Virus record (IMG/VR): IMGVR_UViG_2721755724_000001
Direction: 5' to 3' (one strand)
From: a virus
Lineage: Duplodnaviria > Heunggongvirae > Uroviricota > Caudoviricetes
DNA length: 30,675 nucleotides
Below the pieces are notes generated by a model. The model searched no databases. It worked only from the letters and a program-made list of their open reading frames with translations, and was not told where the DNA came from. A program made the position numbers and the translations under genes. The number at the start of each line of letters is the position of its first letter. Within the stretch, counting starts at the first letter, position 1. Shown here piece by piece: positions 1 through 27,978 of this stretch.

Positions 1-19
1 CTATTTGATAAATATTAAA

Positions 20-1315: not shown

Positions 1316-1334
1316 TAGTTAGTGTGGCTTTTAG

Positions 1335-1586
1335 TCAAGTAAGATGACGTCTTGGTCTCGCTGATGCCTGGCGCTCAATCCAGCGATCAATTTCTTCCAG
1401 GTTGTAAAAGCATGGACTGTTATCCCATGGCATACCGTCATGAGCGACATGCTTATATTCCCTTCCTTCCATAAACGATTTTTCCCGGGCCTTTTTTAAC
1501 GTACCTTTTTTTATTCCTTTCAGCGCAATTAACTGCTCTTCGGATACCCATTTGCCGGGAGAGACAATCATGATTACTTCGCTCAT
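1335..1586 (-). CDS. Excisionase-like small protein
   Basis: 83-aa ORF immediately upstream of int on the same strand; size, position and basic C-terminus fit prophage excisionase-like proteins. Start codon uncertain (a downstream Met is possible). Confidence 0.6.
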   Translation of the reverse strand: MSEVIMIVSPGKWVSEEQLIALKGIKKGTLKKAREKSFMEGREYKHVAHDGMPWDNSPCFYNLEEIDRWIERQASARPRRHLT

Positions 1587-1658
1587 CGATTTCTTTATCT
1601 CTTACATCAGACGAGCGCCGGTTGCAGAATACCAGTCACAACCGGCGACAGTTGAACA

Positions 1659-4130
1659 TTAAGAATCAGCCTGACTCGGGATCAGTTTTTGCCAGATAAC
1701 TGAAACGTATTTTGCCTGGTAACGGGCGTCATCAAGTGCATTATGGCGCTCACCTTCGAATGGAATAGCCGTTCTGGCATCGAAGTCTATGGCTTTCCCC
1801 AGCTCAACGATTGTGCGTACATCGCGATCGTTGTAGTAACGCCACGGGCAGGGGATCCCCTGCCGTTCGTATGAACGGCGCAAAATCGTGTTGTCGAAGT
1901 TGGCTCCATTTCCCCAAACCTGAACAAAAAATTCACCGGAGTTTTCGTCGATAAATTCCCGCAATTGTAACAGTGCATCATCTAACGGGATTTCATCGGT
2001 CATAATGGCAGATTGCGCTTCGCGTGATTGCTTAAGCCACCATTTAATGGTGTTCCGATCAATGACTCCGCCAGCAGTTTCCAGATCGATAGTCTTACTA
2101 AATTCCGGTCCCATATCTCCGGTTTGCGGATCGAAAAATATTGCACCTATTGAGATGATCGGGGCATCAGGATTTTTTCCCATGGTTTCAAGGTCGATCA
2201 TTAGATGGTCACACGTCCTGCTGGTGGATGTGATTTCGTGATGACCGTTCACCTTAATTGAGTGATCTGCCGTCTCGCCAGTTTCATTATCGCTATTGTG
2301 ATGCTGATTGCCGCCAGTGTTCTCCTTGTGTGGATGTTCAGCGCCTTCCATTTCCTCCGGATCATCTTCCTGAACTTCAACCTGATATTCTTCATCGAAT
2401 GTTTCTTGATATGTTGCGTCGCCCATCACCGCGCCACAATCAGGGCAGTTGCCGCCGCCGGTCTGACCGCAGGCGGTGCAGACTTTTTCCACTTCCTGTT
2501 GCGCCACTGGTTCAGGCTGTTTCGTTTCTGGCTCGTTTTGTAACGCATTTGTGCTGTTTTGTTCCGCTTTTTGGTAGTTCCGTTCCGATTCATGCTGGTT
2601 CTGGTTCACAGAATCGCGGGTCTGGATCCCCTTAACCCATTTCGGATCATTCGGGTCACTAATCCCTTCAACAAATTCACCACGTGATGCAGCAAGCAAC
2701 TTATCGGCGTCAGGCTGGCTGATATTGGCTGCCTGCATAATTTTGTTTACTTCGTCAGCGGTAACTTTTATCGGCTCTGGTTGTTCTGAATCTTCAGCGG
2801 TATCTACATTTTGCGGTAAGCCCGTGTATGTGCCATTTTTTCGGGCAAAATATTCTTCTTTTGTGATTTCAGTGGCGCCAGCAGCCAGTGCCTTATCCAG
2901 ACCAGAAAGTTTGTTTGCGCGACCGTATTTTTCTCCGTCCTTATCTGCGAAGAGGAAATAGAACGGCCCCTCACGCTCTACAGATGGTTCAGCTTCCGGC
3001 GCGGTTTCATTTTTTGGGATATCAGATACCTCAGTTTCCACTGCATCAGTTTGTGTTTCTGATGACTGGAGAACATCAACAGTGCCCAGGTCTGTTTCTT
3101 CATTCTCAAACACGCCCTTTGTCGTCAGGTATTCGCAGATATATTTGTTCAGTGCTATGGGATCTTTGTGAATGTCGATCGGACGCTCACGGACAAGGCC
3201 AAAAATAGTCTGGCGGTCGTAGCGAAGGGCATCAGGCTGTTTGCGCATTGATGCCGAGATACGCTTCCAGTCTTCGCGGTCGTTGTCGATAACTTCTTTT
3301 TTTGCCCAGCGATGGATGCTGCCGTCAATGTTTCCGGCATCCACATCACCAGGCCAGAGAGCGTAGGCCAGTTCGTCATCCAGTGTTTTCCATGTCTGCT
3401 TGTATTCGCGATGAATGGCAGCAATGACCGGGCTGATTTTTCCTGTTGAATTTTCAGTGTACTGTTGATTGGCTCTGGCGCGGGCGAGATCAACAACAGA
3501 CGTGTATTTTCCGGTTTCCTTGCGTTCACCTTCGCGACGTTTTTTCCAGATGCGCATCTCTGCCTGAATTTCGGGCCATTTAGCACCAGGAATACATTTA
3601 TGCTTAACCCACCCAATGGCGTGCAACTTAAGCTCCGGATACATGGCGTTAACTTCTGGCATTTTCATCAACGCTTCAACGATATGTCCGTCGAATGTTG
3701 CCATGTCTTCCTGCAACAATTCCTGTGCGCTAATAACCATATCAACGGTGATGTTTTCACATGTGTCGAACTTAACCATGACAGCGTTCTGTACTTCAGG
3801 GGCCAGCTTGTCAAAAGTGACGTTCATCGGATCGGATTCAGTCTCAACCGGGACAAAAGAAGCAGACTCCTCATCCCAGCGGTTTTCCTGCATATATTCA
3901 GCATCCCATGAATCGAGGGCAGGGCGGGGTATGCCAGGTTTATCCTCGCAGACAATAAATTTATAAGCGCAGTCCTGAGCAGCCGGATAATGTTCCAGGA
4001 ACTGCCAGTGAAATTTTGCTCGAGCACGGCGTTCGTCGCCAGCTTCAATGGCTGTGGCTACAGCCACAGCGCCTTCTTCCCTTGTTGCCAGTTCGTCAGG
4101 AATAGCGGCGCAAATAAAGACTTTACTCAT
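1659..4130 (-). CDS. Large prophage exonuclease of the size usually annotated exodeoxyribonuclease VIII, with a C-terminal DnaQ-like DEDDh 3'-5' exonuclease domain
   Basis: 823-aa ORF; C-terminal about 190 aa carry Exo I (IDLETMG), Exo II (VWGNGANFDNTIL) and Exo III (HNALDDARYQA) motifs; acidic low-complexity middle region with a CxxC..CxxC cluster. Confidence 0.7.
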   Translation of the reverse strand: MSKVFICAAIPDELATREEGAVAVATAIEAGDERRARAKFHWQFLEHYPAAQDCAYKFIVCEDKPGIPRPALDSWDAEYMQENRWDEESASFVPVETESDPMNVTFDKLAPEVQNAVMVKFDTCENITVDMVISAQELLQEDMATFDGHIVEALMKMPEVNAMYPELKLHAIGWVKHKCIPGAKWPEIQAEMRIWKKRREGERKETGKYTSVVDLARARANQQYTENSTGKISPVIAAIHREYKQTWKTLDDELAYALWPGDVDAGNIDGSIHRWAKKEVIDNDREDWKRISASMRKQPDALRYDRQTIFGLVRERPIDIHKDPIALNKYICEYLTTKGVFENEETDLGTVDVLQSSETQTDAVETEVSDIPKNETAPEAEPSVEREGPFYFLFADKDGEKYGRANKLSGLDKALAAGATEITKEEYFARKNGTYTGLPQNVDTAEDSEQPEPIKVTADEVNKIMQAANISQPDADKLLAASRGEFVEGISDPNDPKWVKGIQTRDSVNQNQHESERNYQKAEQNSTNALQNEPETKQPEPVAQQEVEKVCTACGQTGGGNCPDCGAVMGDATYQETFDEEYQVEVQEDDPEEMEGAEHPHKENTGGNQHHNSDNETGETADHSIKVNGHHEITSTSRTCDHLMIDLETMGKNPDAPIISIGAIFFDPQTGDMGPEFSKTIDLETAGGVIDRNTIKWWLKQSREAQSAIMTDEIPLDDALLQLREFIDENSGEFFVQVWGNGANFDNTILRRSYERQGIPCPWRYYNDRDVRTIVELGKAIDFDARTAIPFEGERHNALDDARYQAKYVSVIWQKLIPSQADS

Positions 4131-4223
4131 TTTGTTTTAACCTCATGACAGATTTAAGGATGAACAAATCCCTGCCATTGCTGGCATATAAGAATGAAAC
4201 CGGATATTTATTACGGAACTGTT

Positions 4224-4415
4224 TTAAAGACCTGCCGGGATTTCGATATTATCCTGGTGAATAACTTTATCGACCGGGTAACAGTTACCGGGAATTTTCT
4301 GTTCGGTTGCTGCAGTCATACACTCCTGCATTGTCCTGTGAACACTGACTGCAATATCAACTGGCTCTCCGGAAACAAGAAAAACTGTCAGAACAAGCGC
4401 AAATGCTGAATTCAT
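4224..4415 (-). CDS. ydfD: YdfD-like small lysis protein
   Basis: 63-aa product from the internal Met (MNSAFALVLTVFLVSGEP...), N-terminal hydrophobic segment; start overlaps the dicB stop as ATGA, as in the Qin dicB operon. Confidence 0.6.
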   Translation of the reverse strand: MNSAFALVLTVFLVSGEPVDIAVSVHRTMQECMTAATEQKIPGNCYPVDKVIHQDNIEIPAGL

Positions 4416-4600
4416 TGTGCACATCCTTTTGGCATCAGACGTAAACGAGCCAGCATTGAAACAATGCATATTTTATTTAATAGCTCCCGTTCTTGTTTTC
4501 TCTTGTTAATGGCATCTTCAGTAAATACAGGGTTACTGATAGTGACACCAATTTCAAAACAACCTTCAGACGTATTAACGTTTGGTAATAACGTTTTCAT
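4412..4600 (-). CDS. dicB: Cell division inhibitor DicB
   Basis: 62-aa product MKTLLPNVNTSEGCFEIGVTISNPVFTEDAINKRKQERELLNKICIVSMLARLRLMPKGCAQ matches DicB as I recall it; GAGGA Shine-Dalgarno 7 nt upstream; DicF lies immediately upstream. Confidence 0.8.
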   Translation of the reverse strand: MKTLLPNVNTSEGCFEIGVTISNPVFTEDAINKRKQERELLNKICIVSMLARLRLMPKGCAQ

Positions 4601-4770
4601 TATCGCGTCCTCAACAATGAATTTTGTGATGCAGTGCCTGGTGCCTCCAGGTGACGTTAACCAGTTAACAATTAACGCCGGATACAGAGAATCCACCCAT
4701 AACACTGTTTTTGGTTTTAACTGTTCCGCGTGCGCTTAGCCGCATTCACCGCATCACAAAATTCACTTTA

Positions 4771-4827
4771 AAAACGGCGGCAGAGCAGTCACGGAGTAAA
4801 ACTGATACCGCCAAACGTCACCAGAAA
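4771..4827 (-). ncRNA. dicF: DicF small RNA (ftsZ-targeting) with intrinsic terminator hairpin
   Basis: Minus-strand sequence UUUCUGGUGACGUUUGGCGGUAUCAGUUUUACUCCGUGACUGCUCUGCCGCC followed by GUUUUU matches DicF as recalled; GGCGG...CCGCC stem plus U-run. Confidence 0.85.
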
Positions 4828-4858
4828 ATTGATAACAGAGGGCGTTGCAGCGGGGTTG

Positions 4859-5089
4859 TCACTTAAGCGTATGGTCAACCTGACAACTCGGTGTCCTCAA
4901 CGGGGAAGGAATAACCCCGCCATACTTACCGCCGCGCCATTTCGCGGGTTGCCACAACCGGAAGCGCACGGTCGAATTAAATTTAACGACACCGTACAGT
5001 GAGACGAACTTCGCCGTGCGCTTTCGTGTTGTGTGCCTGCTTTTAACCACGTCAGGCGAGGTGGTATCCTTCTTATTCCGAATAACCAA
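4859..5089 (-). CDS. Small basic protein in the ydfC position of the dicB operon
   Basis: 76-aa ORF directly upstream of DicF on the same strand; only a TTG start is available; Arg/Lys-rich. Identity as YdfC is positional only. Confidence 0.4.
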   Translation of the reverse strand: MVIRNKKDTTSPDVVKSRHTTRKRTAKFVSLYGVVKFNSTVRFRLWQPAKWRGGKYGGVIPSPLRTPSCQVDHTLK

Positions 5090-5102
5090 GAAGGAAATCT
5101 AT

Positions 5103-5303
5103 ATGACTAAAGAAGAATTTGTCTCTTATATTTTTGATAAAACGGTTGAAATGTATGCCGCTACTTACGGGTCCTGTAATCCTCTGAATAAACCAGAGGG
5201 GAAAGATGATTTCGACAAAATTTACCGCTTCTTGGAGGACCGCTATATCAAAAGGTTAGAGGACGCAGGGATCAAATCCCCAGTGAAGTCACCATTGTCC
5301 TGA
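5103..5303 (+). CDS. Hypothetical small protein (66 aa)
   Basis: ATG preceded by AAGGAAA Shine-Dalgarno at good spacing; the opposite strand over this span contains no ATG, so Qin-type ydfA/ydfB are not encoded here. Confidence 0.4.
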   Translation: MTKEEFVSYIFDKTVEMYAATYGSCNPLNKPEGKDDFDKIYRFLEDRYIKRLEDAGIKSPVKSPLS

Positions 5304-5637
5304 GAACTTGCAGGACGTCATGATCGTAACTTCCATCCAAACCGCGACGGCAAATTGCTTCTCGTATTACCGGAAGCAGTTCGCTGGAAATCTCGGTGCA
5401 TATTTCACCTGCTAATACGCCTGGCTCAAGTGAGAATATTGGTGAACTTACGGTCTTGGTCTCGACAGTTTCAGAGTCAGTGCCAACATTATAAAGCTCA
5501 ACGAAAGCGGTCTTGATTTTCCGGGCCAGATCTTTTGCTGGCTCGCTTGCAATATCTTTCCCGATTTCTCGCAGCACAGAATGCAATGTATGAGCTGCTG
5601 TTTTCTGTACATCAGACGGTAAATCTTTAAATTCCAT
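5272..5637 (-). CDS. Hypothetical acidic protein (about 121 aa) in the position a DicA-type repressor would occupy
   Basis: Open frame MEFKDLPSDVQKTAAHTLHSVLREIG...; no recognisable helix-turn-helix by eye; start could also be the upstream ATG at 5649. Confidence 0.45.
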   Translation of the reverse strand: MEFKDLPSDVQKTAAHTLHSVLREIGKDIASEPAKDLARKIKTAFVELYNVGTDSETVETKTVSSPIFSLEPGVLAGEICTEISSELLPVIREAICRRGLDGSYDHDVLQVLRTMVTSLGI

Positions 5638-5849
5638 CGTCAGCCTCATCAGTCAGTGTTTCTGGCTAACCAGCAACGCGCGCCAGATTCGGTTTTAAAC
5701 GTTTTGCTTTTGGTATATGTCATCGCGGTGAACGTACCGTCCTGGTTGGGGAACACGCCACATACAGGAGGCATCTGGCGGCGAGCTTCTGTATGATCCC
5801 AAGGTTTATGACGAATATCGTAAGACGAAGCGGGCGGGGCGGTTGAACA
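5638..5849. promoter_or_regulatory. Divergent intergenic region, probable immunity/early promoter-operator region
   Basis: About 210 bp between divergently oriented genes; contains the palindrome AAACGTTT and the dicC remnant. No operator repeats confidently identified. Confidence 0.3.
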
Positions 5850-5866
5850 ATGAAAATCACTCCTGA
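5732..5866 (+). pseudogene. dicC: 3' remnant of Cro-like repressor gene dicC
   Basis: Frame encodes ...QEASGGELLYDPKVYDEYRKTKRAGRLNNENHS*, matching the C-terminus of DicC as recalled; the frame is closed by a stop at 5729 with no start codon, so only about 44 codons remain. Confidence 0.45.
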
Positions 5867-6371
5867 ACAGGCTCGTGAGGCTCTGGATGCCTGGATATGT
5901 CGACCAGGAATGACACAGGAGCAGGCGACGATATTAATCACTGAAGCATTCTGGGCTTTGAAAGAGCGCCCGAACATCGATGTTCAGCGTGTCACAGATG
6001 AAGGTGGCGCGGTTGATCAGCGAGCGCTTGGCGTTAATCGAGTGAAGATATTCGAACGCTGGAAGGCTATCGACACTAGGGATAAGCGTGAAAAGTTCAC
6101 GGCGCTAGTGCCTGCAATTATGGAGGCTATCCGGATTAATGATTTCAGGTTGTATCGTGAAATTAGTGACGGAAAAAGCATCACGTACATGATCGCCGGG
6201 TTAAACAAAGAATATGGCGATGTGGTGGAGTCCGGACTGCTTTTTGCTGATCCTGCCGTAGTGGATCGTGAAACTGACGAACTTATAGAAAAAGCAATTG
6301 CTTTCAAACTTGCGTATCGACAGCAATACCAACAAAAAGCTGGATGGAATTATGAGCCTTCTTTTTGCTGA
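5850..6371 (+). CDS. Hypothetical phage early protein (173 aa)
   Basis: ATG-initiated ORF downstream of the cro-like remnant and upstream of the replication initiator; family not recognised. Confidence 0.55.
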   Translation: MKITPEQAREALDAWICRPGMTQEQATILITEAFWALKERPNIDVQRVTDEGGAVDQRALGVNRVKIFERWKAIDTRDKREKFTALVPAIMEAIRINDFRLYREISDGKSITYMIAGLNKEYGDVVESGLLFADPAVVDRETDELIEKAIAFKLAYRQQYQQKAGWNYEPSFC

Positions 6372-7317
6372 ACGCCCACTGGTTATAAACACACAGCTTG
6401 CGATGAAGATTGGCTTAAATGAAGCCATTGTGTTGCAGCAGTTGCATTACTGGTTGAGAGATACCAATTCCGGCATGGAATGTGATGGTGTTCGCTGGAT
6501 TTACAACACAACGGAACAATGGCTGGAACAGTTCCCATTCTGGTCAGAGTCAACGTTAAAGCGCGCGTTTGCAAGTCTGAAAACGCTGGGGCTTTTGCGT
6601 TGTGAAAAGCTCAATAAATCAAAGCGCGATATGACCAATTTCTACACGATCAACTATGGGAACGAGCTTTTAGATGGTGGCAAATTGAACGAATCCATCG
6701 GTTCAAAATGCGCCGCTCCATCAGGTCAAAATGACACGATGGAAGAGGTCAAAATGAAACGCTCCATTGGTTCAAAACGACCCAATGTCATCGGGTCAAA
6801 ATGGCCTGATGATCTTACAGAGAATACAACAGAGATTACTACAGAGAATAAAAACACTTTTCGTCCGGAAGCTTCGCAACCGGACCCGCAGACCGCTGAA
6901 CAGGATTTTTTAATCCGGAACCCCGACGCGGTTGTGTTTAGTGCGAAAAAACGCCAGTGGGGTAGCAGGGAGGATTTGGCGTGTGCGCAGTGGATTTGGG
7001 GGCGGATCGTGAACCTTTACGAACAGGCTGCCAGCGACGATGGAGAGATCATGCGACCAAAAGAGCCTAACTGGACAGCCTGGGCCAATGACGTGCGCAC
7101 AATGCGGATGCTGGATGGCAGAAGCCACAGACAAATTTGCGAAATGTTTGGTCGGGTACAGCGAGATCCATTCTGGGTAAAAAACATCATGAGCCCGTCA
7201 AAACTCCGCGAAAAATGGGACGAACTGGTCATCCGCTTGGGACGTTCACCTGTACAGCGTTGTGTGAATCATATTTCTGAACCGGATACAGAAATTCCGC
7301 CTGGTTTCAGGGGATAA
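6352..7317 (+). CDS. Phage replication initiator / replisome organizer (O-like)
   Basis: N-terminal winged-helix-like region (ERPLVINTQLAMKIGLNEAIVLQQLHYWL...), a central linker encoded by an iteron array, and a C-terminal region resembling DnaT/replication protein C-termini; start taken as the ATG at 6352. Confidence 0.65.
   Translation: MSLLFAERPLVINTQLAMKIGLNEAIVLQQLHYWLRDTNSGMECDGVRWIYNTTEQWLEQFPFWSESTLKRAFASLKTLGLLRCEKLNKSKRDMTNFYTINYGNELLDGGKLNESIGSKCAAPSGQNDTMEEVKMKRSIGSKRPNVIGSKWPDDLTENTTEITTENKNTFRPEASQPDPQTAEQDFLIRNPDAVVFSAKKRQWGSREDLACAQWIWGRIVNLYEQAASDDGEIMRPKEPNWTAWANDVRTMRMLDGRSHRQICEMFGRVQRDPFWVKNIMSPSKLREKWDELVIRLGRSPVQRCVNHISEPDTEIPPGFRG
6695..6805 (+). repeat. Five direct iterons (core GGTCAAAATG-like) at 23-24 bp spacing, followed by an A-rich stretch: probable phage origin inside the initiator gene
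   Basis: TCAAAA cores at 6703, 6726, 6749, 6772 and 6796; A/T-rich ACAGAGAATACAACAGAGATTACTACAGAGAATAAAAACAC follows at 6810-6850. Confidence 0.6.
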
Positions 7318-7644
7318 GTGTTGATTTCAGGTCATGAGGTAATTTTAAGGAGGACTTGTGGCAAAAGTTTTTACACAGGAAGAGCGGGAAAAAATTAAAG
7401 AGCAGGTGGTCGAACTTGTGCGCCAGAGCGGTCGCGAGACATTACGACAGTTGGAAGCTAAAACAGGTGCGACAAGATATCTGATGAGCATTCTTGCCAG
7501 AGAGCTGGTTGCCAGTGGTTATGTATACAACTCCGGCTACGGGTTATTCCCGTCTGAACAGGCACGAAAGGACTGGCAAAATGCCCGCAAAAAACTCTCT
7601 AGGGCGAAGGTGAAGAAACCCGCTGTGGTTGATTGGATTTGCCC

Positions 7645-8550
7645 CTATATTTCCAGACATCTGTTATCACTTAACCCATTACAAGCCCGCTGCCGCAGAT
7701 ATTCCCGTGGCGAGCGATAACCCAGCGCACTATGCGGATGCCATTCGTTATAATGCTCGAACGCCTCTGCAAGGTTCTTTGCTGCCGTTAACCCGTCTGG
7801 TTTGGGCATGATACTGATGTAGTCACGCTTTATCGTTTTCACGAAGCTCTCTGCTATTCCGTTACTCTCCGGACTCCGCACCGCCGTGTTCTTCGGTTCA
7901 AGTCCCAACATCCGGGCGAACTGGCGTGTTTCATTAGCCCGGTAGCATGAACCATTATCCGTCAGCCACTCCACTGGAGACGACGGAAGATCGTTGCCGA
8001 AGCGGCGTTCCACCGCTCCCAGCATGACGTCCTGTACTGTTTCACTGTTGAAGCCGCCGGTAGTGACCGCCCAGTGCAGTGCCTCACGATCACAGCAGTC
8101 CAGCGCGAACGTGACACGCAGTCTCTCTCCGTTATCACAGCAGAACTCGAACCCGTCAGAGCACCATCGCTGATTGCTTTCTTTCACGGCCACTCTGCCT
8201 GTATGTGCCCGTTTCGATGGCGGTACAGCAGGTTTTCGCTCAAGCAACAGCGCATTCTGGCGCATGATCCGGTAAACACGTTTGGCATTGATCGCAGGCA
8301 TACCATCAAGTTCTGCCTGTCTGCGAAGCAGCGCCCATACCCGACGATAACCATACGTGGGCAGCTCTCCGATAACATGGTGTATACGGAGAAGCACATC
8401 CGTATCATCAGTGTGACGACTGCGGCGGCCATCCATCCAGTCATCGGTTCGTCTGAGAATGACGTGCAACTGCGCACGCGACACCCGGAGACAACGGCTG
8501 ACTAAGCTTACTCCCCATCCCCGGGCAATAAGGGCGCGTGCGCTATCCAC
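7645..8550 (-). CDS. insD: IS2 transposase OrfB (InsD), full length
   Basis: 301-aa ORF ending ...[37 protein letters not shown]; normally expressed as an InsCD frameshift fusion. Confidence 0.9.
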
Positions 8551-8873
8551 TTTTTTGCCCGTCCATATTCAACGGCTTCTTTGAGGAGTTCATTTTCCAT
8601 CGTTTTCTTGCCGAGCAGGCGCTGGAGTTCTTTAATCTGCTTCATGGCGGCAGCAAGTTCAGAGGCAGGAACAACCTGTTCTCCGGCGGCGACAGCAGTA
8701 AGACTTCCTTCCTGGTATTGCTTACGCCAGAGAAATAACTGGCTGGCTGCTACACCATGTTGCCGGGCAACGAGGGAGACCGTCATCCCCGGTTCAAAGC
8801 TCTGCTGAACAATTGCGATCTTTTCCTGTGTGGTACGCCGTCTGCGTTTCTCCGGCCCTAAGACATCAATCAT
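8508..8873 (-). CDS. insC: IS2 transposase OrfA (InsC)
   Basis: 121-aa product [26 protein letters not shown]... matches IS2 InsC. Confidence 0.9.
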
Positions 8874-9273
8874 CTGTTCTCCAATGACTAGTCTAAAAAC
8901 TAGTATTAAGACTATCACTTATTTAAGTGATATTGGTTGTCTGGAGATTCAGGGGGCCAGTCTATTGATCCGGACCTTATCTGGTCACTACCTGATGGAG
9001 AAATACGTCGCTACGACAGTCGTCTAAACATAATCTGTCGCGAGTGCCGGAAGAGCGAAGTTATGCAGCGCATACTGGCATTTTATCAGTGAAATTTTCG
9101 TTATTTATAGACGTAACTAGATTAAAGAGCATTAGTTCAGATGTGAATTGACATTTTCACGGCACAGGATTGAGCTAGCGTGGTTGTCTGCTTTGCGTCA
9201 AAAGCAGATATTACCAGATTTAGACATCTATTCCCGATAGCCCTGCTCTGATGCCACACTCTGTGCTATTTTC

Positions 9274-9735
9274 ATGACCCCAATAAAAATATTTATGACT
9301 ATTGCTGATTTCAAACGGCCTAAATTGGAGCTCCCAAACGGGGCAAACAAACTACTACTGCACTCTTGCTGTGCTCCATGTTCCGGTGAAGTGATGGAGG
9401 CGCTTCAGGCCTCGGGAATCGACTATACCATCTTTTTCTACAACCCGAACATTCATCCTCAGAAAGAGTATTTAATTCGTAAGGATGAGAATATTCGCTT
9501 TGCTGAACAACACGGCGTGCCATTTATTGATGCTGATTACGACACAGACAACTGGTTTGAACGTGCCAAAGGAATGGAATGGGAACCCGAGAGGGGGATC
9601 CGTTGTACCATGTGTTTTGACATGCGTTTTGAGCGGACAGCGCTGTACGCTGCTGAAAATGGTTTCAGTGTGATCAGCAGTTCACTGGGCATTTCACGCT
9701 GGAAAAATATGCAGCAGGTTACCGTCACTGGATAA
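9274..9735 (+). CDS. QueH-family (DUF208, epoxyqueuosine reductase-like) protein, short form
   Basis: 153-aa ORF with the family-typical [12 protein letters not shown] block plus FFYNPNIHP and RCTMCF motifs; ends after ...[13 protein letters not shown], shorter than the canonical enzymes as I recall them. Confidence 0.55.
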
Positions 9736-9810
9736 TCTCAGTCAGATTGCCTTACTCCGAACGCCCACCGCGTCCGTCCCGTACATTCCAGCAACGCATC
9801 TGGAGGTAAC

Positions 9811-10860
9811 GTGCGGGTATTACTTCAACCTGTTCTGGTACCGGAACTCGGGCTGGTGGTCGTTAAGCCGGGCCGTGAATCCATGCCGGTATTCCACAAT
9901 ACCCGGGTACTGGTGGAGCCGGAACCGAAAAGCATGCGTAATCTGCCGTCCGGGGTCGTTCCTGCCGTTCGCCAGCCGCTGGTGGAAGACAAAACATTGC
10001 TGCCGTTTTTCAGTAACGCACGGGTAATTCGTGCTGCTGGTGGTGCTGGTGCATTGTCTGACTGGCTGTTGCGCCATATTAAATCCTGCCAGTGGCCACA
10101 CGGCGATTATCATCACAGCGAAACCGTTATTCACCGTTATGGTACCGGCGCAATGGTGTTGTGCTGGCACTGCGACAACCAGCTGCGTGACCAGACATCC
10201 GAATCACTCGAGCAACTTGCTCATCAAAACCTGTCAGCATGGATGATTGACGTCATCGGTCACGCAATAAGCGGTACGCAGGAGCGTGAATTATCTCTGG
10301 CTGAATTATCCTGGTGGGCGGTCCGCAATCAGGTGGCGGACGCGCTACCGGAAGTGGTATTACGTCGCTCGCTGGGATTACCAGCGGAAAAAAACTGCTC
10401 GGTGTACCGCGAAAGCGACATCGTACCGGGAGAGCAGACCGCCACCAGCATATTGAAACAGCGCACAAAAAATCTTGCACCGTTGCCTCACGCCCACCAG
10501 CAACAAAACCCATCACAGGAAAAGACGGTGGTAAGCATCACCGTTGATCCAGAGTCTCCGGAATCTTTCATGAAGCTGCCTAAACGTCACCGTTGGGTTA
10601 AGGAGAAATACACACGCTGGGTTAAGACACAGCCGTGTGCTTGCTGCGGTATGCCAGCCGACGATCCGCATCATCTGATTGGTCACGGGCAGGGCGGAAT
10701 GGGAACCAAAGCACATGATCTCTTTGTGTTGCCTTTGTGCAGAAAGCATCACGACGAGTTGCATACGGATACCGTGGCATTTGAAGAGAAGTATGGCTCC
10801 CAACTGGAGCTGATTTTTCGATTTATCGATCGCGCGCTGGCAATTGGTGTGCTGGCCTAA
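9811..10860 (+). CDS. DUF968-family prophage protein (YdfU-like)
   Basis: 349-aa ORF, GTG start with GGAGG Shine-Dalgarno; Cys/His-rich C-terminus ([21 protein letters not shown]...CRKHHDELH); position just upstream of Q as in Qin. Confidence 0.75.
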
Positions 10861-10877
10861 TTTTGTGGAGTAAGTTG

Positions 10878-11255
10878 ATGCGTGATATTCAGATGGTTCT
10901 TGAGCGTTGGGGGGCATGGGCGGCTAATAATCATGAAGATGTGACCTGGTCGTCCATTGCCGCCGGTTTTAAGGGATTAATTCCTTCAAAAGTAAGATCT
11001 CGTCCGCAATGCTGTGACGATGACGCGATGATCATTTGTGAATGTATGGCTCGCCTGAAAAAAAACAACAGCGATTTACATGATTTATTGGTGGACTATT
11101 ATGTCGGCGGCATGACTTTTATGGCGCTTGCACGTAAGCATGGGCGATCTGATTGTTGGGTTGGCAGGATGCTCCAGAAAGCTGAGGGCGTAGTGGAGGG
11201 CATGCTGATGGTGTTGGATCTCCGATTGGAGATGGATGCTGATTGTTCGAAATAA
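10878..11255 (+). CDS. Late-gene antiterminator Q (QuuD-type)
   Basis: 126-aa product [33 protein letters not shown]... closely matches the DLP12 QuuD antiterminator as recalled; GGAG Shine-Dalgarno upstream. Confidence 0.85.
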
Positions 11256-11289
11256 TTAAAGGAAAAGTTGCTGTCTGATTTTCATTAGT

Positions 11290-11353
11290 CTAACATTTTA
11301 AATGTTGGAATCGCAACGTAGTTATTATCATATAACAGCTTGTTTCCTGATTT
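11290..11353 (+). promoter_or_regulatory. Candidate late promoter (PR'-like) and Q-utilisation region
   Basis: TTGGAA...TATCAT/TCATAT promoter-like hexamers immediately after Q and before an intrinsic terminator; assignment by position and motif only. Confidence 0.3.
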
Positions 11354-11383
11354 AGCCAGCCTCCCCAAAGGCTGGTTTTTTTC
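11354..11383 (+). terminator. Rho-independent terminator (tR'-like)
   Basis: AGCCAGCC-TCCCCAAA-GGCTGG hairpin followed by a 7-T run. Confidence 0.6.
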
Positions 11384-11410
11384 TAATAAGTATCATTTCG
11401 GGTGGGGATT

Positions 11411-11935
11411 TTATTGTTTAACCCATAATAGTTCATTGACATTGAATCCCAACTTTTGAGCGGTACGCACATAGTCTGCTTTTACATTATCTGGAATAGT
11501 TTGGGTCCTTGCCAGAATCCATAGGTATTCTCTGTTCGGACCACTGACAAGAGCATACTTATACTCATCATCCAGTTTGATTACATTATAGCCACCATAG
11601 AAGGGGCCAAAAAACGAAACTTTCAACGCTGCAGTTTTAGTATCTCCAGTAAAGTATGCTTTACCTTCGCTCTCGCTCCATTTGTTTTTCGTTGGATCGT
11701 ATCCACGGTTAAGTACGCGAATCCCTCCGTCGTTCCGTTTTTCATAAGTAGCGCTGACCTGTTCCAGACCACGTTCGAACCAGTTCTCGAGGCGAGCTAT
11801 TTCATACCATTTTCCGAGGTAGCGGTTGGCGTCAAAATTTGTAATCGGCTGCACACCTTTAGGTGGTGTCGGGGCCTTACATGCTATAAGAGTGAAAGAG
11901 AGTGCAATGCCAGTCAACACAGGCCATAACTTCAT
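11411..11935 (-). CDS. blc: Bacterial lipocalin (Blc-family outer-membrane lipoprotein)
   Basis: 174-aa ORF with lipoprotein signal peptide (LIAC lipobox) and strong similarity to E. coli Blc throughout (NFDANRYLGKWYEIARLENWFERGLE..., KVSFFGPFYGGYNVI, YLWILART). Confidence 0.8.
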   Translation of the reverse strand: MKLWPVLTGIALSFTLIACKAPTPPKGVQPITNFDANRYLGKWYEIARLENWFERGLEQVSATYEKRNDGGIRVLNRGYDPTKNKWSESEGKAYFTGDTKTAALKVSFFGPFYGGYNVIKLDDEYKYALVSGPNREYLWILARTQTIPDNVKADYVRTAQKLGFNVNELLWVKQ

Positions 11936-12127
11936 AATAAATCCTGTACTTTTGATAGTTGAGAGTAAGTATGAAAGATAGATGAGTACGACCGATCACT
12001 TAAAGAACTTTCCTACTATATTAGGAATAGTCAATAACAGAAAAATTGTCAGTGATGAAGCCAGAAAGGCAATTTAGTCCGTGCACTACAAAGTTTATGT
12101 GTTAATGAATTAGTCAAGGGGGAGGAA

Positions 12128-13087
12128 ATGATAAAAAAACCTGTGATTGGGATCAGCGGTTGTTTGGGCGGTTCTGCTGTTCGTTTTGATGGTGGTCACA
12201 AAAGAGATGACTTTTTAATGGACAAATTAGTGGAATGGGTAACATTCAGACCAGTATGTCCGGAAATGGCTATAGGGCTGCCAGTTCCGCGTCCTGCTCT
12301 ACGACTTGTGCGCTCGAAGCAAGGAAATATACGGATGTGTTTCAGCCACGACCAGAATGAGGATGTGACAGAGAGAATGACAGAGTTTAGTCGTTCTTAT
12401 ATGGACAAATTAAAGGATGTATCGGGTTTTGTGGTTTGTGCTAAATCTCCCAGCTGTGGCATGGAGCGCGTGCGTGTCTATGATGAAAATGGTAATCGAG
12501 GTCGTAAAGATGGAGTGGGACTATTTACGAGCACTTTGATGGAAAAGTTTTCCTGGCTACCGGTTGAAGAGGATGGGCGATTACATGATCCAGTGCTTCG
12601 TGAGAATTTTATTGAAAGAGTTTTTGCTTTGCATGAGCTCAATCACCTTTACAAGGAGAAATTATCAAGAAGAGAGTTATTAGCTTTTCATAGTCGTTAT
12701 AAGCTTCAGTTGTTGGCGCATAGCCAGGCAGGCTATAAAGATATGGGACCATTTGTGGCTGCAATACACGAGTGGGCGGACCTTGAATCATACTTTGAGG
12801 TGTATCGTGATAATCTGATGGCGATTCTCAGAAAACCAGCATCACGTAAAAATCACACGAATGTGCTGATGCATATACAGGGGTATTTTAGTAATTACTT
12901 AAGTACACGCCAGCGTAAAGAGTTGAGCGAGGTTATACTTAACTATCGCTTTGGCACATTGCCTCTTCTTGCGCCGTTGACTCTGCTGAAGCATTATCTG
13001 GGTGAGTATCCTAATGATTACTTGCTTACACAGAATTACTTCGATCCCTATCCGGAAGAACTGGCTCTAAGACTGATGGTGAATTAA
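12128..13087 (+). CDS. Two-domain DUF523 (TudS-like thionucleobase desulfidase family) / DUF1722 (YbgA-like) protein
   Basis: 319-aa ORF with GGGGGAGG Shine-Dalgarno; N-terminal Cys triad (GISGCLGG, PVCPE, AKSPSCG) typical of DUF523 Fe-S proteins; C-terminal half resembles YbgA. Confidence 0.65.
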   Translation: MIKKPVIGISGCLGGSAVRFDGGHKRDDFLMDKLVEWVTFRPVCPEMAIGLPVPRPALRLVRSKQGNIRMCFSHDQNEDVTERMTEFSRSYMDKLKDVSGFVVCAKSPSCGMERVRVYDENGNRGRKDGVGLFTSTLMEKFSWLPVEEDGRLHDPVLRENFIERVFALHELNHLYKEKLSRRELLAFHSRYKLQLLAHSQAGYKDMGPFVAAIHEWADLESYFEVYRDNLMAILRKPASRKNHTNVLMHIQGYFSNYLSTRQRKELSEVILNYRFGTLPLLAPLTLLKHYLGEYPNDYLLTQNYFDPYPEELALRLMVN

Positions 13088-13385
13088 CTGTATGCGATAT
13101 CATCTGAAAGTGATGAGTTCCTGTATGCAGGATATTTACAATCGTAAAAACTACGCTATGATGCTCATAGTGTCAGTTTTTATAAAAATCCTGTTCACGC
13201 TAAAGAAAACATTGAGATGCAATTTAATGTTGGTAAACATACCAGCCCCAAAAGATTTTATTCAATCTGTTTTTATATGAAGATATTTCAAGTGAATATA
13301 AAGAGCATATAATATTATTATTGCACGCAGGGTGATGCTGCCAACTTACTGATTTAGTGTATGATGGTGTTTTTGAGGTGCTCCA

Positions 13386-13661
13386 GTGGCTTCTGTTTCT
13401 ATCAGCTGTCCCTCCTGTTCAGCTACTGACGGGGTGGTGCGTAACGGCAAAAGCACTGCCGGACATCAGCGCTATCTCTGCTCTCACTGCCGTAAAACAT
13501 GGCAACTGCAGTTCACTTACACCGCTTCTCAACCCGGTACGCACCAGAAAATCATTGATATGGCCATGAATGGCGTTGGATGCCGGGCAACTGCCCGCAT
13601 TATGGGCGTTGGCCTCAACACGATTTTACGTCACTTAAAAAACTCAGGCCGCAGTCGGTAA
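13386..13661 (+). CDS. insA: IS1 InsA
   Basis: 91-aa product [37 protein letters not shown]... matches IS1 InsA. Confidence 0.95.
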
Positions 13662-14084
13662 CCTCGCGCATACAACCGGGCAGCGATGTGATTGTCTGCG
13701 CTGAAATGGACGAACAGTGGGGCTACGTAGGTGCTAAATCACGTCAGCGCTGGCTGTTTTACGCGTATGACAGGATACGGAGGACGGTTGTGGCGCACGT
13801 CTTCGGTGAACGCACTCTGGCCACACTGGAGCGTCTTCTGAGCCTGCTGTCGGCCCTTTGACGTGGTGATATGGATGACGGATGGCTGGCCGCTGTATGA
13901 ATCCCGCCTGAAGGGAAAGCTGCACGTAATCAGCAAGCGATATACGCAGCGAATTGAGCGGCATAACCTGAATCTGAGGCAGCACCTGGCACGGCTGGGA
14001 CGGAAGTCGCTGTCGTTCTCAAAATCGGTGGAGCTGCATGACAAAGTCATCGGGCATTATCTGAACATAAAACACTATCAATAA
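13580..14084 (+). pseudogene. insB: IS1 insB, frameshifted
   Basis: InsB-homologous sequence is split into two frames around 13855-13865 (...LSLLSAL* then [15 protein letters not shown]...), consistent with a 1-bp insertion relative to canonical IS1. Confidence 0.75.
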
Positions 14085-14271
14085 GTTGGAGTCATTACCT
14101 GCACGCAGCTATTATAATATAACAGATTAGTTTAATGATTTGTTTTTTGTGAGTTAAACACATGGTTTTATAGTTGTGATGCAATGAGATTTTCCTTATT
14201 GTTGAACTGGCGAATATTGATTTTCCACCTATACTTACCTGGTGTAACCCCAATGATATCAGGTGGATAAT

Positions 14272-14985
14272 ATGCCATACATATGTTCTATCATTTTGGT
14301 GTTGAACTCGTTTGGTGTCCGAATTGGTAAAGAAGATATTTTGTTTAAAAAAGGAAATGCTGTCCTCATTGAATACAATTTAAAAGATCTTTTTTCGTCA
14401 AATACAGATCATCTAATGATCGTAGATATTGAGGAGAAAACAGTTAATGATTTCTTTAAAAACTACACACTCTCACCTTTTTCTGTAAGAAGGTTTTATC
14501 CGTCATACTTGATAGTAGAATGTGAAGATTTTTCATTGTTAAGGAACTTGGTTGCATGCTTGAATTGTGATAGCAAAACCGTGGATGTAGTTAGAAATCA
14601 AATATCACTTGCATGTCTTGCTGTCTTATCTTCAGAGAAAATAGTGCAAAGTTTTTTGTTCGGAAGTCTTAATAGCTTAGGTTGTAAAGTTAAGGCTATT
14701 ATTCACTCGGATATCTCAGCGTCATGGAGACTTTGTGATATATCTTCAAGATTATATATGAGCGAGAGTTTGTTAAAAAGAAAATTAAAAGACGAAGGAT
14801 TATCGTTTAGTAAATTAATTCTTGAAGAACGAATGATGATGGCGCAAAGATTATTGATCTACAGTAACCATACTGTCGGCAAGGTGGCGGGAATATGCGG
14901 GTATGACAATGCATCATATTTTGTAAGTGTTTTTAGAGGATATTTTGGTGTGCCTCCGCACCAATATTTATCAAGATTTTCTTAG
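14272..14985 (+). CDS. AraC-family transcriptional regulator (AppY/Rns-like)
   Basis: About 237 aa from the ATG at 14272 (AGGTGG Shine-Dalgarno); C-terminal AraC helix-turn-helix (AGICGYDNASYFVSVFRGYFGVPPHQY); visibly AT-rich gene. Confidence 0.8.
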   Translation: MPYICSIILVLNSFGVRIGKEDILFKKGNAVLIEYNLKDLFSSNTDHLMIVDIEEKTVNDFFKNYTLSPFSVRRFYPSYLIVECEDFSLLRNLVACLNCDSKTVDVVRNQISLACLAVLSSEKIVQSFLFGSLNSLGCKVKAIIHSDISASWRLCDISSRLYMSESLLKRKLKDEGLSFSKLILEERMMMAQRLLIYSNHTVGKVAGICGYDNASYFVSVFRGYFGVPPHQYLSRFS

Positions 14986-15052
14986 AAGATATGATGTGAT
15001 GGCATTTTATAAAGTTATTTTTTGAAGTGTAAGATTATACGATATTTTTAGC

Positions 15053-15086
15053 TACGCCAGAATAATTGCTGGCGTTTTTTTTTTTG
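15053..15086 (+). terminator. Rho-independent terminator after the AraC-like gene
   Basis: CGCCAG-AATAATT-GCTGGCG hairpin followed by an 11-T run. Confidence 0.6.
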
Positions 15087-15175
15087 AATAGATGTTCGGG
15101 CCTTACGCTAATGTAACTTCTTTCCTTCTTCGAACCAAACCGTGTACACCATCCGTTATCTGCGGAGGTGAGGCT

Positions 15176-15391
15176 ATGAAATCCATGGATAAGTTAACAA
15201 CGGGCATCGCCTACAGCACCTCTGCAGGCAGTGCTGGCTACTGGTTTTTACAGTTGCTCGATAAAGTCACGCCCTCACAGTGGGCGGCAATAGGTGTATT
15301 GGGTAGTCTGGTATTTGGCATGCTGACGTATCTGACAAACCTTTATTTCAAGATTAAAGAAGACAGGCGTAAGGTTGCGAGAAGAGAGTAA
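15176..15391 (+). CDS. Holin, S21-type pinholin
   Basis: 71-aa product [60 protein letters not shown]... closely matches phage 21 S; dual-start MKSM motif; GGAGGTGAGG Shine-Dalgarno. Confidence 0.85.
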
Positions 15392-15395
15392 TCCA

Positions 15396-15947
15396 ATGAC
15401 TCAAGACTATGAACTGGTTGTGAAAGGAGTTCGCAATTTTGAGAATAAAGTGGCGGTAACTGTAGCCTTACGGGACAAAAAACACTTTGACGGTGAAATT
15501 TTTGACCTGGACATCTCGCTGGACCGTGTTGAAGGTGCCGCGCTGGAGTTTTATGAGGCAGCAGCCAGAAGGAGCATCAGACAGGTCTTCCTGGATGTTG
15601 CTGCCGGGTTATGTGAAGGGGATGAGCAGTCGCCGGAAAAGCGCCCCATAATTTTAGAGGCGCAGAATGTGTGGATAACCTACAAAGGAAAGCTACCGGG
15701 AAGAATTACTGGTTCTCTGAAGACGCCACCGACGGCATTGCGGTCAGAAAAAGATGATATTGAATCGCCCATTGAAAAACTGGAGGGCAGCGTCGCTGAT
15801 CTGAATAAAAAATTGTCGGTGCTGATTCCTTCTGAAGATGAAAAAAAACGCCGCGATGAGCAGTTTGCGGCGTTTTACGATTATTGCATTGAAGTTACTC
15901 GCAGGAATTTTGTGAAGATTTTTGAGGAGGGTAAATCTCTTCAGTAA
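15396..15947 (+). CDS. Hypothetical acidic protein (183 aa) between holin and endolysin
   Basis: ATG 5 nt after the holin stop; no transmembrane segment or lysozyme motifs evident; family not recognised. Confidence 0.5.
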   Translation: MTQDYELVVKGVRNFENKVAVTVALRDKKHFDGEIFDLDISLDRVEGAALEFYEAAARRSIRQVFLDVAAGLCEGDEQSPEKRPIILEAQNVWITYKGKLPGRITGSLKTPPTALRSEKDDIESPIEKLEGSVADLNKKLSVLIPSEDEKKRRDEQFAAFYDYCIEVTRRNFVKIFEEGKSLQ

Positions 15948-16155
15948 GCTTATTGGCGGACGCTGCAATTAATTCAGGAAGGTCCGCAAGGTCATCTGTC
16001 AGTGGATATGATGAAAAATCGGCGGCAGTTCTGTTAAGAAGCGCTTTAACTAATTCCTTTTCCTTCTCCGGCAACAAGTTGATTAGAGCTACGACTGCTT
16101 GCCTGAGTGCGATTAAATCAGCAAAAGTTTGTTTAGGTAGATTTGTGTAATCCAT
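15895..16155 (-). CDS. Hypothetical small acidic protein (86 aa), convergent with the preceding ORF
   Basis: ATG-initiated ORF with a weak Shine-Dalgarno; 3' end overlaps the 183-aa ORF by 53 bp; could be spurious. Confidence 0.3.
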   Translation of the reverse strand: MDYTNLPKQTFADLIALRQAVVALINLLPEKEKELVKALLNRTAADFSSYPLTDDLADLPELIAASANKLTEEIYPPQKSSQNSCE

Positions 16156-16268
16156 AGTCGCCTCTGTGTTTATCAGATTGACATCCTCCTCCCGCCAGTG
16201 CCCATCACTGGTGAGGTAAGATTTAACATATCCGGGGATTTGAAGCCGATAAATCCTGATAAATATCC

Positions 16269-17296
<1,028 letters not shown>

Positions 17297-17659
17297 ATTA
17301 ATATTAAATCGGATTATTTTTAGCGCTGAATGTGAAATTTAAATAAAAAGGACTCTTCCATGAGTCAAAATCCTTGAAATCTTAAGGGTAAGATAAAAGG
17401 TCATTAGACAGAATGACACGTTTTATTAATAAATAAAGCTATTGTTTCATTCGTGTGTTTTTCTTTACAAAAGTAATCCTTGCTATGGTTGGTTAATCAT
17501 GCGTTAATGGTGTTCTGGTTTGTTACAAAATTATCTGAAGCAGTCATTGTTATAATTTTATTATTTGTACCTCTTGAGATTTCCTTGTTGGTTTTTCTCT
17601 CTGATATTTTTTTTCGGACCATTCTGCCCAAGGGCTAACTTCTTCAAAAGGTAATAATG

Positions 17660-18100: not shown

Positions 18101-18257
18101 CTTAGTGTCTAGTCGATGGATACTCACATATTACGGTAACATTATGAAAAAAATAATAGTTTTTTTAACTCTGAACCAGCAATGGTAGTGCCAGTGATGA
18201 CCGGAGTTAACACCATCATGCGTGAATTGATCCTACCCACGTAATATGGACACAGGC

Positions 18258-19124
18258 CTAAGCGAGGTTCTTGTTTTCAAATTGTTCCGGACTGAGGCCG
18301 CCACACCAACTGTGCCGCCGCCACCGATTGTAATCACATTCGATATAATTAAACACCGTTGCCCGCATTATTTCCCGGCTGATAAAGTGTTCTCCATGGA
18401 TACATTCCACTTTCAGCGAATGAAAGAAGCTTTCCACGCAGGCATTATCGTAGCAGCAACCTTTTGCGCTCATACTTCCACGCAGATTATGCCGCTTCAG
18501 TTGCGCCTGATAATCTGCTGAACAGTACTGGCCTCCACGGTCCGTGTGAACGATAACGTTCCGGGGCCTCTTACGCCGCCACAGCGCCATCTGCAGGGCA
18601 TCGCAGGCCAGTTGCGCCGTCATGCGTGGCGACATTGACCAGCCAATAACGGCACGTGACCACAGGTCAATGACCACTGCCAGATACAGCCAGCCTTCAT
18701 CTGTACGTAAGTACGTGATGTCTCCTGCCCACTTCTGGTTCGGGCCACTGGCGTAAAAATCCTGCTCCAACAGATTTTCTGACACAGGCAGGCCGTGTGC
18801 GCGGTAGCTGACCGGGCTGAACTTCCGGGAGGCCTTTGCCCTCAGTCCCTGACGGCGCAGGCTTGCCGCCACGGTTTTTACGTTAAAGGGGTAACCCTGA
18901 GCACGCAGTTCATCCGTCAGGCGTGGGGCACCGTAACGCTGTTTTGACCGGGTAAAAGCCGCGAGGACAACGCTGTCGCAGTGTTGGCGGAACTGCTGAC
19001 GCGTGCTTATCCTTGTCCGCCGCTGACACCACGTATACCAGCCGCTGCGGGCCACCCGGAGCACGCGGCACATTGCTTTGATGCTGAACTCAGCCTGATG
19101 TTTTTCAATAAAGACATACTTCAT
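18258..19124 (-). CDS. insF: IS3 transposase OrfB (InsF)
   Basis: 288-aa ORF matching IS3 InsF (DDE catalytic region); normally expressed as an OrfAB frameshift fusion. Confidence 0.9.
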
Positions 19125-19420
19125 TTCAGGCGCTTCGCGAAGTATGTCGCGGCCTTTTGGAGGATAGCCAGCTCTTCATCCCGTTCTGCCAGCTGGCGTT
19201 TGAGACGTGCAATCTCGGTAGACATCTCCAGTTCACGTTCAGAAGACGTCTGCTGATTTTGCTGTTTACTGCGCCAGTTGTAGAGTTGTGATTCATACAG
19301 GCTGAGTTCACGGGCTGCGGCAGTAACACCGATGCGTTCAGCAAGCTTCAGGGCTTCACTGCGAAATTCAGGCGAATGCTGTTTACGGGGTTTTTTACTG
19401 GTTGATACTGTTTTTGTCAT
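19121..19420 (-). CDS. insE: IS3 transposase OrfA (InsE)
   Basis: 99-aa product [31 protein letters not shown]... matches IS3 InsE. Confidence 0.9.
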
Positions 19421-19806
19421 GTGAGTCACCTCTGACTGAGAGTTTACTCACTTAGCCGCGTGTCCACTATTGCTGGGTAAGATCAAATATCCAAATGGCG
19501 AAACAACACACCTCACTGTAATGGCTGCAGGGTTTCCATCTCTGACCGGAGATCATAAAGTCATTTATGTAGCAGCGGATCGACATGTAACTTCAGAAGA
19601 AATTCTGGAAGCAGCAATGAGACTCTTGAATTGATTTGATTCTAATGCATTGATAATAAATGATAATCATCTTTATCTGTTTGTGTGAAATTTAGACCGT
19701 CGTATGTTGATTATTGCGATGTTTCATCTTATCTTTTATACGTTTGCTCCATATAATTGACACTACTGTGTACCAGGAAAGTCATAACAGACTAAAAGAG
19801 GAAATG

Positions 19807-27612: not shown

Positions 27613-27978
27613 ATGATTGATGTCTTAGGGCCGGAGAAACGCAGACGGCGTACCACACAGGAAAAGATCGCAATTGTTCAGCAGAGCTTTGAACCGGGGA
27701 TGACGGTCTCCCTCGTTGCCCGGCAACATGGTGTAGCAGCCAGCCAGTTATTTCTCTGGCGTAAGCAATACCAGGAAGGAAGTCTTACTGCTGTCGCCGC
27801 CGGAGAACAGGTTGTTCCTGCCTCTGAACTTGCTGCCGCCATGAAGCAGATTAAAGAACTCCAGCGCCTGCTCGGCAAGAAAACGATGGAAAATGAACTC
27901 CTCAAAGAAGCCGTTGAATATGGACGGGCAAAAAAGTGGATAGCGCACGCGCCCTTATTGCCCGGGGATGGGGAGTAA
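27613..27978 (+). CDS. insC: IS2 transposase OrfA (InsC), copy 2
   Basis: Identical 121-aa product to copy 1. Confidence 0.9.

Follow-up and report, generated by a model that had tools for sequence, protein, structure and literature searches.

Known and proposed phage-borne regulators of host acid resistance

The AraC-like regulators AppY, PatE and PsrA/PsrB are textbook examples of phage cargo wired into the acid-resistance network of the host. According to a 2024 review, PatE activates gadE, gadBC and hdeAB, the activation of gadE and hdeAB being shared with PsrB, and both proteins bind the hdeA promoter (-132 to -45); in addition, gadE is induced by PsrA and PsrB, its promoter being, like that of hdeA, a binding target of PsrB (PMC10877973). 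AppY, carried by prophage DLP12 of Escherichia coli K-12, activates gadE directly, and it increases acid resistance (PMC10057817). Expression of appY depends on H-NS and RpoS, PatE is RpoS-dependent, and ECs0287 goes up in early stationary phase (PMC2241611). Overexpression of the Nissle "PatE" homologue (CIW80_12240) led to higher survival at pH 2.5 (bioRxiv 10.1101/2025.08.01.668021); we assign this protein to no clade, as the RefSeq locus tags do not match (RS12240 is bcsZ). Here we describe a further regulator of this kind, encoded at 14272-14985 of a 30,675-nucleotide stretch of viral DNA (Caudoviricetes; IMG/VR record IMGVR_UViG_2721755724_000001). The whole stretch is referred to below as the window, and it represents a lambdoid prophage of the Qin type from E. 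coli. We are highly confident that the gene product is an AraC-type regulator of the PatE/Psr/AppY/GadW/YdeO group, and we consider it reasonably probable that the gene is a prophage moron whose product activates host acid-resistance genes. It is an uncharacterised member of a well-known prophage class, which extends a known theme and opens no new one. The gene and its flanking elements are the following.

13331-14099, same orientation as the regulator: insertion sequence IS1, with a 9-bp target duplication TGCACGCAG at 13322-13330 and 14100-14108
14100-14271, plus strand: 5' regulatory region of the regulator, 32.6% GC, bounded on the left by the IS1 insertion
14229-14235, plus strand: putative -10 element C-TATACT (TATACT at 14230-14235), with TAC after it, at a distance of 42 nt upstream of the ATG
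14261-14266, plus strand: Shine-Dalgarno sequence AGGTGG, read from the sequence, with a 5-nt spacer to the ATG at 14272
14272-14985, plus strand: coding sequence of the regulator, stop codon included; product of 237 amino acids, AraC/XylS family (PHROG 1450, E=9.5e-97)
15054-15085, plus strand: intrinsic terminator, 7-bp stem ACGCCAG/CTGGCGT (15054-15075) with an 8-nt loop, and T11 at 15075-15085

Family assignment and closest relatives

The protein consists of an N-terminal AraC-type regulatory domain (residues ~1-133) and a double helix-turn-helix DNA-binding domain (residues ~136-235). Both Pfam models of the latter are matched well above their curated cut-offs, HTH_18 with 59.9 bits against 33.6 (E=3e-16) and HTH_AraC with 42.7 bits against 26.6 (E=5.9e-11). 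BLASTP revealed full-length homology, covering residues 1-229 to 1-237 of the query, to the PatE-type regulator ECs_0287 of the E. coli O157:H7 Sakai prophage Sp1 (47% identity, E=5e-76), PsrA (ECs_1087; 39%, E=3e-47), GadW (34%, E=3e-45), AppY (30%, E=2e-41) and YdeO (29%, E=1e-32), while GadX was matched in the DNA-binding domain only (41%, E=2e-24). All five full-length homologues reportedly influence acid-resistance genes, in most cases through gadE, hdeAB or both. The window protein further shares with this subgroup a length within 235-255 amino acids and the start MxxxCS(V/I). C5 is invariant in the nine closest relatives and at least 90% conserved over 40 homologues, and S6 is invariant in the nine.

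The sequence-only reading of this locus had assigned the gene to the AraC family and likened its N-terminal region to AppY and Rns. The family assignment was confirmed by the Pfam matches and by the superposition of the DNA-binding domain on that of GadX, and both helix-turn-helix motifs, whose loss on closer alignment had been named as the result that would speak against it, proved to be intact. The N-terminal likeness held for AppY, which is a full-length homologue. Rns, reached through Foldseek, whereas AppY and GadX were found by BLASTP, resembles the protein at the level of the fold only, and other folds come closer.

A profile search returned 73 relatives in many clades, and nearly all of those with a named source come from E. 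coli. In a neighbour-joining tree the window protein and three clusters at 84%, 76% and 60% identity (P0002, P0005 and P0013) form the sister group of the PatE clade (PatE, P0016, P0017 and P0023), and the Psr clade comes next. With 47% identity and a position outside the PatE clade, the protein is not a PatE orthologue. The resemblance to PatE is nevertheless extensive: both are prophage-encoded proteins of ~240 amino acids with the same two-domain layout, and a TATACT lies ~40 nt before the ATG of either gene. The first recognition helix, SESLLKRKLK, is the same in the two proteins; PsrA departs from it at one residue, and GadW, AppY and YdeO have near-identical versions. The DNA-binding domain as a whole is 65% identical to that of PatE and 55% to that of PsrA, whereas PatE and PsrA share only 51% with each other; PsrB and PsrA are 90% identical.

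As regards nucleotide sequence, window positions 14657-15732 align at 77% identity with 5386-6475 of L013, a PatE-clade prophage, the aligned part comprising the half of the gene that encodes the DNA-binding domain, the terminator region, the holin and DUF1327. The 5' half of the gene fails to align, which suggests from the sequences a mosaic recombination within the gene that exchanged the N-terminal domain.

The other described systems are further removed. PsrA/PsrB, although full-length homologues encoded downstream of Q in a lambdoid prophage, are more distant than PatE and are linked to effector loci, Pch regulators and tRNA genes in strains positive for the enterocyte effacement locus (LEE), while the window gene is found in commensals such as E. 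coli HS, where a type III secretion read-out is irrelevant without LEE. AppY is likewise a prophage-borne AraC-like activator with an MxxxCSV N-terminus, but its identity is low and its gene sits at the distal end of DLP12, outside the slot between Q and holin. GadW, YdeO and GadX belong to the common subgroup, yet they are core chromosomal genes (acid fitness island or ydeO locus) and no phage cargo. Finally, Rns, CsvR, ToxT and ExsA differ in that the N-terminal domain of the window protein has no detectable sequence similarity to theirs and is shorter (~133 amino acids), and in their target genes.

Predicted structure

An AlphaFold2 model built from a 40-sequence alignment reached a predicted local distance difference test score (pLDDT) of 91 and a predicted template modelling score (pTM) of 0.86. 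In a Foldseek search of the Protein Data Bank (PDB) the top full-length matches were Rns, CsvR and ToxT (E 1e-10 to 4e-7), at a template modelling (TM) score of only ~0.45 because the orientation of the domains differs. The seven-helix DNA-binding domain of the model superposes on that of GadX at 1.3-1.7 A, with a TM score of 0.86-0.88 relative to the target. The N-terminal domain alone matched no PDB sequence at E<=10. Its fold was closest to the ExsA regulatory domain (score 11.2; 123 residues aligned, 2.7 A), followed by ToxT and AraC (7.6 each), BgaR (7.2), Rns (7.1) and RhaR (6.9), and these matches in the model point to a genuine AraC-type regulatory and dimerisation domain.

Promoter region, start codon and terminator

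The start at 14272 is supported by the alignment of the M-x-x-x-C-S residues at position 1 with all relatives and by the RefSeq annotation of E. coli HS, which lists the identical product of 237 amino acids. The GTG at 14263 is a less likely start, since it lies inside the Shine-Dalgarno sequence; the stretch around the latter, TCAGGTGGAT, is unchanged across the window, HS and the temperate phages 1H12 and IdasGreatGrand. The coding sequence has a GC content of 33.5% (30% at third codon positions); the figure is 47.7% over the window, 43% in the ybgA-like gene upstream, 46% in the holin and 43-53% in the flanking genes overall. It falls in the bottom 1% of 714-nt segments of the whole 30.7 kb, the minimum of which begins at 14111.

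From 14100 onward the window is 99.8% identical to E. coli HS. The region 14100-14271 is also kept in IdasGreatGrand and, from ~14177 onward, in 1H12. Within it, TATACT stands at -42 in HS, 1H12, IdasGreatGrand and the 60%-identity allele (L010), and is shifted by ~3 nt towards the ATG (-39) in the Sakai PatE gene, in phage mEp332 and in the 50%-identity allele (L013), while PsrA has CTATAAT at -41 as its counterpart. The bases around it vary between alleles, whereas the hexamer is kept down to 47% protein identity. We take CTATACTTAC to be similar to the sigma-S -10 consensus CTATACTTAA, and transcription of the regulator is predicted from the sequence to start near 14242. Two other candidates in this region were set aside. 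A promoter at 14147-14174, found by consensus scan, was ranked below the TATACT at 14230 because it is not conserved in 1H12. A hairpin in the 5' untranslated region that would hide the Shine-Dalgarno sequence (CCACCT/AGGTGG) had a fold z of -0.94, and its pairing partner is not conserved in 1H12.

At the other end of the gene, five of the seven pairs of the terminator stem are G-C, and the folding energy is -11.3 kcal/mol (z = -2.7). HS, 1H12 and IdasGreatGrand all have the stem unchanged. The T-run reads T5-C-T5 in HS and IdasGreatGrand and T5-C-T4 in 1H12; the uninterrupted T11 occurs only in the window. In the corresponding position the 50%-identity allele carries another hairpin, with T8. 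The interval originally marked out for this gene, ending at 15086, extends one base beyond the T-run.

The IS1 copy is absent from the corresponding position, between the ybgA-like gene and the regulator, in E. coli HS. Its end lies 172 bp from the ATG, so that the conserved part of the upstream region next to the gene is undisturbed. Among 5426 complete E. coli genomes none shows its exact configuration; nine have an IS1 near the gene in a different arrangement. The insertion could be polar on late transcription.

Prophage setting

With 99.5-100% identity, the region matches the Qin-like prophage located between rspAB and ydfJ in E. coli HS. The gene order is Q, lipocalin, YbgA, regulator and lysis genes.

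10863-11255: Q antiterminator
11411-11935, minus strand: Blc-type lipocalin, cargo between Q and the regulator
12128-13087, plus strand: YbgA-family protein with 2-thiouracil-desulfurase (TudS-like) and DUF1722 domains, cargo between Q and the regulator
15176-15391: P21-type holin (Pfam), followed by DUF1327, a phage lysozyme and an Rz-like DUF2514 protein

The holin starts 190 bp beyond the coding sequence of the regulator and 90 bp beyond the T-run of the terminator. The slot between Q and holin is variable, containing cspF, cspB and ynfU in K-12 Qin and nmpC in DLP12. The cassette of lipocalin, YbgA and regulator is conserved with the nearest alleles (1H12, IdasGreatGrand and L017), while lipocalin and YbgA are absent beside the 60%- and 50%-identity alleles, where the regulator alone stands directly between Q and holin. 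PatE-clade alleles also occur in this slot: the gene and ~250 bp of upstream DNA form one block, found between Q and holin in L013 and beyond the tail-fibre genes in Sakai Sp1, and the homology of the block ends at the stop codon. The regulator of the window is thus an accessory gene between Q and holin that is replaced in related prophages, as expected of a moron.

The claims made earlier from the letters alone about the layout of the locus agree with these results. The gene lies just before the lysis cassette, as stated, and with 33.5% GC against 43-53% in its flanks it is the AT-richest gene of the window. The strong hairpin and 11-T terminator that it was said to possess was recovered as a 7-bp stem of -11.3 kcal/mol, conserved among relatives. 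An independently transcribed cargo gene had been proposed; as far as anatomy is concerned, the putative, conserved -10-like TATACT, the conserved terminator of its own, the distinct base composition and the variable slot are compatible with this. Searched with PADLOC, the regulator and its neighbours matched no defence system.

Distribution, selection and frameshifted alleles

The gene was found in 921 of the 5426 complete E. coli genomes (17%), every copy being chromosomal. Among these 921, the gene is at least 99% identical in 329 and 80-90% identical in 567; at least 80% of its length is present in 885, and less than that in the remaining 36. The exact protein occurs on 603 contigs, and homologues at 77-86% identity are encoded in complete genomes of temperate phages (1H12 and IdasGreatGrand). 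An uncharacterised sister clade of PatE is therefore common, commensal HS and sequenced temperate phages included, and it could contribute to strain-to-strain variation in acid tolerance and gut passage. In comparisons with the phage alleles, the ratio of nonsynonymous to synonymous substitutions (dN/dS) comes to 0.20-0.24, with dS at 0.33-0.61, which indicates at the sequence level that the gene is under purifying selection.

Near codon 40 of the 84%-identical sister allele there is a run of eight T (T8), of which L017 (2858-3588) lacks one. In the L017 lineage this loss splits the gene into open reading frames (ORFs) of 44 and 195 amino acids. The split form stands for 623 database sequences, compared with 1131 in the intact cluster of this allele. 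Loss in the T-run may reflect either frequent inactivation or slippage-prone switching. At the same site the window allele has C-T6, and its ORF is intact. Evidence of pseudogenes in related strains had been named beforehand as an argument against the sequence-only reading. The window gene has an intact frame and low dN/dS ratios; of the sequences of the 84% sister allele, about one third appear frameshifted.

Proposed role and alternative explanations

In a lysogen, the regulator would be transcribed from its own promoter, which is probably sigma-S-dependent and H-NS-silenced and would thus confer expression in stationary phase or under stress, while the terminator would keep its transcript out of the holin and lysis genes. 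During lytic growth, Q-modified RNA polymerase would read through this terminator. The protein probably dimerises via its N-terminal AraC-type domain, and its two helix-turn-helix motifs would contact host promoters rich in A and T. Among possible targets, gadE and hdeAB in the acid fitness island are the most likely, and through them acid resistance would be increased in the manner of PatE, PsrB and AppY; that these genes are bound and activated is what the relatives and the conservation of the DNA-binding domain would predict. By the same analogy, activation of host acid-resistance genes in stationary phase is the likely role, and for the specific acid-resistance regulon we see a slightly better than even chance.

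Several observations weigh against this interpretation. The proposed regulon is extrapolated from relatives at 39-47% identity, and specificity in the AraC family can shift with few substitutions. The N-terminal domain is just 34% identical to that of PatE, so the signal input may differ. The top NCBIfam model, YdeO, scored 112.3 bits against an equivalog cut-off of 348, and the GadX model 89.8 bits against 500; being so far under the cut-offs, the regulator is an orthologue of neither. The frameshifts in the 84% sister allele suggest that many hosts can do without the function or pay a cost for it, and the IS1 copy 172 bp upstream of the ATG may alter expression in the window itself. Furthermore, no paper in the searched literature names WP_001146313 or the cassette, the Psr survey by Tree et al. 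(2011) lying outside the search.

It could be argued that the gene has no current function and is silent and decaying, a leftover from a cryptic prophage. The prophage is indeed full of insertion sequences (IS1, IS3-family and IS2), with IS1 close upstream of the regulator, and the gene has a low GC content and is likely silenced by H-NS; frameshifts in the T8 run are common in the sister allele, and less than 80% of the gene remains in the 36 genomes mentioned above. However, the window ORF is intact and preceded by a good Shine-Dalgarno sequence, the dN/dS ratios stay low over considerable divergence, the identical protein recurs on hundreds of contigs, the promoter element and the terminator are conserved, and the gene is present in complete phage genomes. 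Owing to this selection and conservation we find decay unlikely, though the frameshifted sister alleles show that the gene is dispensable. Regulation within the phage, with the holin/lysis cassette or the upstream lipocalin and YbgA/TudS-like cargo as targets in place of host acid-resistance genes, appears rather unlikely as well. AraC-family regulators often control adjacent genes, and the regulator directly precedes a P21-type holin in the window, HS, 1H12, IdasGreatGrand and the 60% and 50% alleles, with Q genes of three different types in front of it; as the first gene to follow Q in L010-L013, it would be made early in late transcription. On the other hand, PatE in Sakai Sp1 and its mEp332 homologue are located past the tail-fibre genes and distant from any holin, with the same upstream region as L013, and PsrA is followed by tRNA genes. 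The lipocalin and YbgA are missing next to the more divergent alleles, and every characterised relative acts on host loci. It is mainly the retention of the upstream region at unrelated prophage positions, together with the strong terminator between gene and holin, that disfavours local control.

The N-terminal domain leaves room for two further explanations. The protein may be a ligand- or partner-dependent regulator whose regulon is unlike that of PatE and AppY, responding to fatty acids (as do Rns and ToxT) or to an anti-activator (as does ExsA), possibly in connection with the lipocalin. The low identity of this domain to that of PatE and its ExsA-like fold are in line with such a regulator, but the domain has no sequence similarity to any solved structure, and the lipocalin is not found with the more distant alleles. 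In Rns/ToxT-type regulators the fatty-acid pocket residues are H20/R75 of Rns and K31/K230 of ToxT, and we know of no ligand for AppY, GadW, YdeO, PatE or Psr. We regard this explanation as quite improbable. More doubtful still is that the regulator is tied to the late/lysis module and that its ExsA-like domain could take a protein signal encoded by phage or host, so that prophage induction or a partner protein would reprogramme host transcription or lysis timing; the suggestion comes from its place as the first gene after Q in several prophages, where it always adjoins a P21-type holin. Activation of host acid-resistance genes by a prophage moron remains the explanation that we prefer.

Other features of the window

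A G+C-rich hairpin with a T-run lies at 11341-11384, directly after the Q gene, and is a candidate tR' or a bidirectional terminator common to the lipocalin gene. In an Rfam scan of 10500-17500 this hairpin gave the single match, which was sub-threshold (RF02278, 28.6 bits against 50) and probably arose by chance. In the lysis region, the DUF1327 (YdfR-like) ORF at 15396-15947 (plus strand) encodes 183 amino acids in the window, and the HS annotation treats it as a truncated pseudogene. An ORF of 86 amino acids at 15895-16155 (minus strand) overlaps its end; it corresponds to a hypothetical protein of HS and has no Pfam match.

Positions 1-10800 of the window contain early lambdoid genes, including a tyrosine integrase (20-1315, minus strand) and an ORF of 823 amino acids (1659-4130, minus strand). 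This part does not align to the HS locus, because IS1 and deletions removed those genes there, and the prophage is thus more complete in the window than in HS. Finally, two elements are extra relative to HS, namely an IS3-family element at 18228-19485, with ORFs of 102 and 288 amino acids on the minus strand, and IS2 (TnpA, TnpB) at 27522-28853. Together with IS1, this load of insertion sequences hints at an IS-rich host such as Shigella.
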